A stretch of 64,000 nt of DNA. Origin: a virus. The notes under the pieces are model-generated. The model saw only the letters and a list, made by a program, of their open reading frames with translations. It was not told where the DNA came from and ran no database searches. Below are positions 15,957 through 16,344 of this stretch, one piece after another. The DNA lies in the IMG/VR virus record IMGVR_UViG_3300026484_000295, positions 32,001 to 96,000 of that record. One strand, written 5' to 3'. Position 1 is the stretch's first letter; each line of letters opens with the position of its first letter. Position numbers and translations under genes: made by a program.

Positions 15957-15964
15957 TATAAATA
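15957..15964 (+). promoter_or_regulatory. T4-type late promoter TATAAATA upstream of cheY
   Basis: Exact motif 21 nt before the ATG, followed by an AAGGAGG SD. Confidence 0.6.
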
Positions 15965-15984
15965 GTTAAAAAAGGAGGATTTAA

Positions 15985-16344
15985 ATGAAAGTATTAGTAT
16001 TAGATGATAGCAAAACAATGTTAAGAATCATCACAAACACTTTAGCTAGAATAGGACATAAAGATGTTGTTACTGCTGAAGATGGGGTGCAAGGTTTAGA
16101 AAAGTTTAAAAATGATAAATTCGATATAATTTTAACCGATTGGAATATGCCAAATATGGATGGTTTAGCTTTTGTTAAAGCTGTACGAAAAATGAATGAT
16201 GATATACCAATCGTTATGATAACAACGGAGGGTGGAAAAGCTGAAGTAATTACAGCTTTAAAAGCTGGCGTGAACAATTATGTCGTTAAACCATTCACTC
16301 CACAAGTGCTTAAAGAAAAATTAAAAGATATACTTGGAGAATAA
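15985..16344 (+). CDS. cheY: Chemotaxis response regulator CheY
   Basis: DDSKTM, TDWNMP (phospho-Asp), TTEGGKAEVITALKAGVNNY and KPFTPQVLKEKL, as recalled for Campylobacter/Helicobacter CheY. Confidence 0.93.
   Translation: MKVLVLDDSKTMLRIITNTLARIGHKDVVTAEDGVQGLEKFKNDKFDIILTDWNMPNMDGLAFVKAVRKMNDDIPIVMITTEGGKAEVITALKAGVNNYVVKPFTPQVLKEKLKDILGE

Follow-up and report, generated by a model that had tools for sequence, protein, structure and literature searches.

We analysed a stretch of viral DNA 64,000 nucleotides long (hereafter, the window) that spans positions 32001-96000 of an IMG/VR viral contig (IMGVR_UViG_3300026484_000295; G000). The contig is linear, 172,404 bp long and, as estimated by CheckV, 61% complete. 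The subject of this work is a gene within it, cheY (15985..16344, + strand; ATG at 15985, stop codon at 16342-16344), which encodes a 119-amino-acid (aa) single-domain response regulator of the Campylobacterota CheY1 type (P0001). Two features precede the gene on the same strand: TATAAATA, the -10 motif of T4-type late promoters, at 15957..15964, 20 nt before the start codon, and a Shine-Dalgarno sequence, GGAGG, at 15974..15978 within AAAAGGAGGA, 6 nt before the start codon. cheY stands alone on the plus strand, with both adjoining genes on the minus strand. An earlier note on this DNA had described a stand-alone CheY with every phosphorylation-site residue, opposite in orientation to its neighbours, with its own TATAAATA and a strong Shine-Dalgarno sequence, 2.5 kb from a flagellin cassette and with no cheA, cheW or chemoreceptor in the window, all of which we find to be correct.

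The gene upstream, divergent from cheY, belongs to the CCA-adding enzyme/poly(A) polymerase family (14665..15903, -; PF01743, E = 4.7e-29), and the intergenic region between the two is 81 nt long. Downstream lies a convergent 191-aa open reading frame (ORF; 16345..16920, -) without a Pfam or PHROG match, the last gene of a minus-strand block that starts with tail-fibre-like genes. This block is headed by a further TATAAATA site (25393..25400, -), 42 nt before a 546-aa tail-fibre-like/virion-structural gene (23710-25350), and runs down to 16345, converging on cheY. The stop codons of cheY and the 191-aa ORF abut (16342-16347), and no intrinsic terminator is predicted 3′ of cheY; a cheY transcript would enter the end of the tail-fibre block antisense. 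On the other side, the flagellin cassette comprises flagellin (12026..12829, +; Flagellin_N 5.7e-38, Flagellin_C 1e-15), an 88-aa ORF with no Pfam match (12884..13150, +), and FlaG (13153..13461, +; PF03646, 2.9e-7), the end of which is 2.5 kb upstream of cheY. A full-length DnaJ with J, zinc-finger and C-terminal domains (10856-11863, -) adjoins this flagellar module. A 98-aa ORF antisense to cheY (15981-16277) was rejected as a gene, since relatives match it only through the conservation of cheY itself.

The element is an uncultured T4-like jumbo phage whose genome has a G+C content of 27%. Its contig carries genes for the major head protein (phrog_138, 6e-75), tail sheath, tail tube and tail-fibre-like proteins, homologues of T4 gp44, gp46 and gp47, a ribonucleotide reductase, and a topoisomerase II split by a homing-endonuclease-like gene. 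The gene for a gp55-like late sigma factor lies at genome positions 157163-157780 (phrog_234, 3.4e-18; phrog_12791, 1e-18; 1.5e-5 with T4 gp55 by phmmer). The phage is presumably lytic, and its host is most likely a Campylobacterota bacterium. A close relative (G002; 289,880 bp, 87% complete) shows the true genome size of the group and also carries the flagellin gene. The cheY region had no megablast match among 50,697 phage records, and every phage record found by tblastn with the window CheY was at most 46% identical to it. Among the top tblastn "phage" records are many that consist of unannotated fragments or contain bacterial genes, cheA for example; contamination may have affected some of the assemblies, and none of these records was used as evidence for phage CheYs.

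By its sequence and predicted fold, the window protein is a motor-type CheY and no generic receiver. The Pfam Response_reg profile (PF00072) matches it at E = 5e-30 over positions 1-110 of 111, and no output domain accompanies this stand-alone receiver. Its closest solved structure is Helicobacter pylori CheY1 (3GWG, E = 1e-44), followed by dozens of CheY entries from E. coli, Salmonella and Vibrio. An AlphaFold2 model (predicted local distance difference test score, pLDDT, 95.7) has the five strands and five helices of the (beta-alpha)5 fold and superimposes on 3GWG with a template modelling (TM) score of 0.97 and an rmsd (root-mean-square deviation) of 0.7 A; the top 50 Foldseek hits are CheY almost throughout. 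Identity to motor CheYs is 64-70%, far beyond that to generic receivers.

The residues on which CheY signalling depends are in place. D7 and D8 of the acidic Mg2+ pocket correspond to E. coli D12 and D13, the phospho-acceptor D52 to D57, and the switch residues T80, Y99 and K102-P103 to T87, Y106 and K109-P110; the acceptor loop, TDWNMPNMDG, is the same in both proteins. Across the 19 viral and cellular sequences of our alignment (A1), D7, D8 and D52 are invariant, and every viral copy retains the Asp residues of the pocket, the acceptor Asp, the Tyr and the Lys, with either Thr or Ser as the residue equivalent to T87. The contacts of E. coli CheY with the FliM N-terminus are A90, K91, K92, I95, A99, Y106, V108, K119 and K122 (PMC3774744, Table 3), and their equivalents in the window CheY are G83, G84, K85, V88, L92, Y99, V101, K112 and D115. 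Because eight of these nine positions are as in H. pylori CheY1, with the K119 and Y106 equivalents invariant in alignment A1, the protein is, by its sequence, of the motor-binding type, and the face that would meet FliM, CheA-P2 and the CheZ peptide is host-like. Several viral CheYs (the L012, L009, L010 and L004 copies) have Ile or His in place of W58, the residue after the acceptor Asp; alleles with this change, or with the Ser that G002 has at the T87 position, may differ in activation kinetics. We also considered whether CheY is packaged in the virion and injected, as T4 internal proteins are; this is unlikely, as the beta1 strand begins right at the N-terminus, with no targeting or cleavage extension.

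Domain searches of the whole 172-kb contig and of the 290-kb, 87%-complete G002 genome found no CheW, Hpt, CheZ or FliMN_C, and no CheA or credible histidine kinase. Nor was there a credible chemoreceptor (methyl-accepting chemotaxis protein, MCP) in either, the sole MCPsignal match scoring 14.8 bits, below the cut-off, inside a 2223-aa ORF. A phage-encoded kinase in this phage group was likewise rejected, the only HATPase_c match in G002 being a GyrB/topoisomerase domain. With no phage-encoded partners, the CheY must work through host proteins. A different, phiKZ-like CheY-bearing contig (167 kb, G003) encodes a 491-aa protein that may be a phage histidine kinase (L132:1262-2737, +, equal to G003:C1:154261-155736): it ends in a HATPase_c domain (1.1e-8) and matches HisKA weakly. 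Its gene lies about 100 kb from the cheY of that phage.

The window CheY departs from its cellular counterparts at the start of helix alpha1, where cellular CheYs read DD-S-S-TMR-RI and the window protein reads DD-S-K-TML-RI. K10 and L13 thus stand in place of a cellular Ser and Arg (E. coli S15 and R18). The TML form is present in 7 of 10 viral CheYs, and none of the 84 CheYs derived from genomes has it. In 401 Campylobacterota genomes there was no match to a degenerate DNA pattern for DDSxTMLRI(I/M), while a relaxed pattern, used as a positive control, recovered from five control records the CheYs that it should. The strict TML pattern was found on nine of 2.9 million IMG/VR contigs, and these nine come from one sample series. 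Among the top metagenomic and viral matches, 65 have Leu at the E. coli R18 position, and TMV, TMI and TMQ forms also occur. Seven of 80 metagenome loci have Leu or Val there (six TML, one TMV), and the surroundings of the four inspected among these seven (L134, L135, L137 and L178) are all phage-like, as is the context of every TML copy whose surroundings were inspected.

This stretch of alpha1 is the docking helix for the P1 domain of CheA. In the crystal structure of CheA3-P1 with CheY6, the N-terminal end of alpha1 accounts for some 67% of the interface and determines the specificity of phosphotransfer, for which the position equivalent to K10 is one of two key residues (PMC2817712). L13 lies inside the same stretch as K10. 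The change in alpha1 appears to be phage-associated among the sequences searched.

We then considered how cheY might be transcribed. The TATAAATA octamer occurs 75 times on the two strands of the contig, and it is concentrated in front of genes. Of 162 upstream regions of 80 nt, 24 contain it in the sense orientation vs 10 in the antisense, whereas shuffled upstream regions gave 8.8 +/- 2.9 sites with a maximum of 19 (500 shuffles). Among 56 octamers of equal composition it is the commonest upstream, the runner-up reaching 15. The ATAAATA core shows the same asymmetry (54/162 sense vs 22 antisense), and 29 of its 66 occurrences fall in a sharp peak at 20-29 nt from the start codon, with the cheY site inside this peak. 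The major head, tail tube, tail sheath and tail-fibre-like genes are each preceded by TATAAATA. Furthermore, the (N)ATAAATA motif is kept at the cheY locus in both relatives that share it, as CATAAATA in G002 and AATAAATA in L137.

Since the motif is enriched, stands before structural genes, and is accompanied by a gp55-like factor, there is good evidence that it represents the late-promoter class of this phage. Roughly a third of the TATAAATA sites may be chance occurrences, so the activity of any single site, including that of cheY as a late promoter, is probable rather than certain. The earlier note had placed cheY under a phage late promoter: the motif class, the spacing and the gp55-like factor bear this out, while for this particular, sigma-70-like octamer the assignment is softened to probable. 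Two further observations concern the motif itself. ATAAATAA (42/162 upstream regions) and the ATAAATA core are both commoner than the full octamer, and the first T of the motif seems to be less strict in this phage. The gene for the large subunit of ribonucleotide reductase (49511-51907, -), which is early in T4, is likewise preceded by TATAAATA, at a distance of 46 nt (motif at 51954); the motif here is maybe not strictly late, or this is a chance match.

cheY occupies the same position in three related phages: the window phage, G002, and a more distant relative represented by a 3.7-kb metagenome contig (L137). The DNA flanking cheY in G002 is 81-93% identical to that of the window phage (98% aa identity for a 327-aa neighbour, 83% for the CCA enzyme), and the two CheYs encoded at this site share only 62% aa identity. 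No DNA alignment was obtained between the two phages from the promoter motif through approximately the first 47 cheY codons. The synonymous divergence (dS) of the two cheY genes is 0.78, with a ratio of nonsynonymous to synonymous divergence (dN/dS) of 0.35 for the whole gene; in the C-terminal part, where beta5 and alpha5 lie, this ratio falls to 0.18. L137 has the same gene order, with the CCA enzyme (60% aa identity), cheY (63%) and the homologue of the 191-aa ORF (55%), which flanks cheY in G002 as well; its AATAAATA lies about 30 nt upstream of cheY. These comparisons indicate that the cheY locus is old and under purifying selection.

Both relatives also carry an endonuclease gene next to cheY. 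A SegE-like GIY-YIG endonuclease gene is inserted upstream of cheY in G002, behind CATAAATA (L012:11918-12807, -), and an intact 297-aa version lies directly downstream of cheY in L137 (2189-3082, +), with its own TATAAATA. The match to the GIY-YIG Pfam profile is weak, its E-value of 1.6e-4 falling short of the cut-off, and the gene is absent from the window. The G002 copy is split into ORFs of 205 and 109 aa near an A-run, maybe by a frameshift or as a decayed copy. That the G002 cheY is far more diverged than its flanks is expected from co-conversion or import of an allele, and by this pattern alleles are exchanged at the locus in connection with a homing endonuclease.

Beyond these relatives, cheY is found in at least two further phage lineages among IMG/VR contigs. 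The first, a PhoH/TnsA-like group (L002, L003, L004, L007, L213 and L220), has only distant capsid, TnsA-like and PhoH genes in common with the window phage. The second is phiKZ-like (L005, L006, L008 and L010), with a divergent multisubunit RNA-polymerase beta-like gene and contigs of up to 167 kb. On the phage-like contig L135, PhoH and RecJ-like genes lie near cheY, and an ORF (3578-4069, +) that matches phrog_9787, "translation initiation factor" (4.9e-35), ends one base before it.

The recurrence of cheY in several phage lineages suggests that such viruses probably interfere with the swimming of the cells they infect. The closest metagenomic proteins to the window CheY are P0002 (93% identity), P0003 (84%), P0005 (80%) and P0014 (76%; on a 496-kb contig). 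Of the 401 Campylobacterota genomes, 338 have a CheY at E <= 1e-35, with a best identity of 69%. In our trees the viral CheYs do not form one clade: 7 label changes are needed, at least 4 of them forced by supported branches. All 76 of the 76 copies without Arg at the R18 position fall on one side of a branch with a Shimodaira-Hasegawa-like approximate likelihood ratio test (SH-aLRT) value of 90, together with 7 CheYs from metagenome-assembled genomes labelled Arcobacteraceae, Arcobacter, Campylobacteraceae or Sulfurospirillum. This grouping of the non-Arg copies is suggestive.

Together, these findings lead us to propose, with moderate confidence, that a T4-like jumbo phage keeps a working, phosphorylatable CheY as an auxiliary gene that is made late and acts on the motor. 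A gp55-type late sigma factor would transcribe cheY from TATAAATA along with the virion genes. The protein would then be phosphorylated by host CheA, or by acetyl phosphate. Since its alpha4-beta5-alpha5 face hardly differs from that of H. pylori CheY1, it could bind the N-terminus of FliM in the host motor and would thereby change the reversal frequency late in infection. The alpha1 changes, K10 and L13, suggest an altered coupling to the host kinase and/or phosphatase, which would make the phage copy dominant over that of the host.

Several observations weigh against this proposal. TATAAATA also resembles the -10 box of host sigma-70 promoters in a genome of such low G+C content, and about a third of its sites could be due to chance by our shuffling. 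A phmmer query with T4 gp45 found no homologue on the 61%-complete contig. The G002 allele has Ile at W58, Ser at T87 and a cellular-type STMRR alpha1, so the signature is not universal in phage copies, and TML-type proteins are also encoded on 196-496-kb contigs that possibly derive from cellular lineages missing from our genome sample. The CheY trees, with about 120 columns, are poorly resolved. Finally, added wild-type CheY could either raise or lower motor switching, depending on relative affinities.

The first of these points bears on the timing of expression, since cheY might instead be expressed early or constitutively by host RNA polymerase, with TATAAATA serving as a sigma-70-like -10 box or matching by chance. 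The sigma-70 promoters of Campylobacterota rely mainly on an AT-rich -10 region, and at 27% G+C the shuffled upstream regions still give about 9 sites against the 24 observed. Four findings run counter to this. First, the cheY site lies inside the 20-29-nt spacing peak common to structural genes. Second, the ATAAATA core is kept at the locus in two diverged relatives. Third, the homing endonuclease gene beside the L137 cheY has its own TATAAATA. Finally, a simple sigma-70 scan found 6 sites in 1.5 kb vs 10.1 expected, with no better candidate immediately upstream. We therefore regard early or constitutive transcription by the host polymerase as rather unlikely.

The combination of a host-like FliM face and a changed alpha1 fits either of the effects that the earlier note had suggested for late infection, a bias imposed on motor switching or a phosphate sink for host CheA. 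As a sink, the phage CheY would compete for phosphorylated CheA without driving the motor; CheY~P at FliM would fall, and infected cells would swim smoothly, without reversals or chemotaxis. Sink CheYs are established in bacteria with several CheYs, such as Sinorhizobium and Rhodobacter. An orphan CheY with an intact phospho-acceptor pocket is consistent with this role, and the changes sit in the P1-docking helix, where they could speed phosphotransfer. A pure sink, however, would not need the motor-binding face, and it is in the C-terminal part that purifying selection is strongest (dN/dS 0.18), with the Y106 and K119 equivalents kept and eight of nine FliM contacts as in a bona fide motor-binding CheY. 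This selection argument is qualified by the use of the same alpha4-beta5-alpha5 face by CheA-P2 and the CheZ peptide. On balance we consider a sink unlikely, and retain action on the motor as the preferred reading.

A role away from the motor appears less likely still. The protein could regulate some phage or host protein in a phosphorylation-dependent manner, or act as a decoy for CheV, the receiver of CheAY or ChePep-type partners, and is maybe not a late product. Single-domain receivers have many roles, and the G002 allele is changed at W58 and T87. cheY also adjoins the tail-fibre block, a placement comparable to that of the CheY-like genes that Alteromonas phages V22 and A5 carry in their host-recognition modules (PMC10579305). 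Those proteins, however, are only remotely similar, falling outside the 30 best phage records (all <=46% identity). The 64-70% identity to motor CheYs, the near-uniform CheY content of the top 50 Foldseek hits, and the flagellin and FlaG genes 2.5 kb away likewise argue for a role at the motor. Last, we judge it very improbable that cheY is a neutral passenger, acquired from a host not long ago and of no use to the phage. Phages are known to acquire genes from their hosts, and cheY is a small gene with no companion on its strand and, in relatives, with mobile endonucleases as neighbours. Against this, the locus is kept in three phages whose flanking proteins are down to 55-60% identical, dN/dS is 0.35 at a dS of 0.78, at least three phage lineages carry cheY, no cellular CheY among the 401 Campylobacterota genomes exceeds 69% identity, and the catalytic residues are kept in all viral copies.

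A broader proposal would be that Campylobacterota phages have evolved a CheY subfamily of their own, with alpha1, the helix that faces CheA-P1 and CheZ, rewired (Ser to Lys, Arg to Leu) and the motor-binding face kept. Such a protein would capture the phosphoryl flux of the host kinase, resist host control, and lock the rotational bias of the motor late in infection, and homing endonucleases would have helped it to spread between unrelated jumbo phages. The phage might gain by excluding superinfection that depends on the flagellum, or by determining the place at which the cell remains and lyses. We put this forward as speculation and consider it unlikely as a whole.

Phage auxiliary genes have mostly been treated as metabolic, and direct viral control of host behaviour is barely documented. 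At stake here is where an infected cell swims, stops, attaches or lyses. That the gene in question encodes a single, very well understood switch protein of 119 aa, for which phosphotransfer, FliM binding and cell tracking are standard assays, makes the question of whether phages steer their hosts directly testable, and the alpha1 signature amounts to a two-residue hypothesis on how a viral response regulator could out-compete the host copy. Flagellum-dependent phages move along the filament in a manner that depends on its rotation. If it is rotational direction that the phage CheY affects, this would bear on defence against such flagellotropic phages and on the initiation of biofilms, which in H. 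pylori follows rotational bias (PMC11237671). Speculative pay-offs for the phage include holding or dispersing the infected cell before lysis, changing its attachment to surfaces, and blocking superinfection by flagellum-dependent phages.

The nearest known counterparts of the window CheY are H. pylori CheY1 (3GWG, 3H1E, 3H1F and 3H1G) and other Campylobacterota CheYs. It shares with H. pylori CheY1 a single (beta-alpha)5 receiver (64% identity when structurally aligned, TM score 0.97), the acidic pocket, the T/K/Y switch residues and the alpha4-beta5-alpha5 partner face. Unlike H. pylori CheY1, it is phage-encoded, lies behind a T4-type late-promoter motif, is 1 and 2 residues shorter at surface positions before beta3 and before beta4, respectively, and combines K10 with L13, a combination not found in the 401 Campylobacterota genomes.

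CheY-like genes have been mentioned in other phages. Alteromonas phages V22 (gp30) and A5 (gp11) carry them as class II auxiliary genes beside tail-fibre genes (PMC10579305), and predicted phages of ammonia oxidisers carry CheR, CheY and MCP genes, one Nitrosospira phage having flagellin and FlaG (bioRxiv 10.64898/2026.05.02.722434). Like the window cheY, these are phage-borne receiver genes without a kinase; adjoining tail-fibre genes are shared with V22 and A5, and flagellin with FlaG is shared with the Nitrosospira phage. In contrast to the present case, they are annotation-level mentions with no function assigned or shown, and the Alteromonas proteins, at 147-149 aa, are distantly similar, whereas the window CheY is a close orthologue of motor-binding CheY. 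A different investment in the flagellar apparatus of the host is made by FRphi, a flagellin-remodelling prophage of Enterobacter that carries its own flagellin and TldR, which mediates RNA-guided repression of host fliC (PMC13418256). The window phage, too, carries its own flagellin; it differs in that FRphi is temperate and lacks CheY, while the additional component of this T4-like phage would act on motor control and not on the composition of the filament.

The late promoters of T4 consist of TATAAATA and need no -35 element; gp55 reads the octamer with the help of gp33 and the gp45 clamp. The window phage has the same octamer upstream of virion genes and encodes a sigma factor of the gp55 family; it differs from T4 in that the ATAAATA(A) core is commoner than the full octamer (54 and 42 vs 24 upstream regions). 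The SegE-like gene adjoining cheY in two relatives resembles the free-standing, seg-type GIY-YIG endonucleases of T4, although its Pfam match is weak and the window phage has no such endonuclease. Set against these systems, what is new here is a close orthologue of motor CheY in jumbo phages of lytic type, with a late-promoter motif class, conserved synteny, spread over several phage lineages, linkage to a homing endonuclease, and a signature in alpha1.

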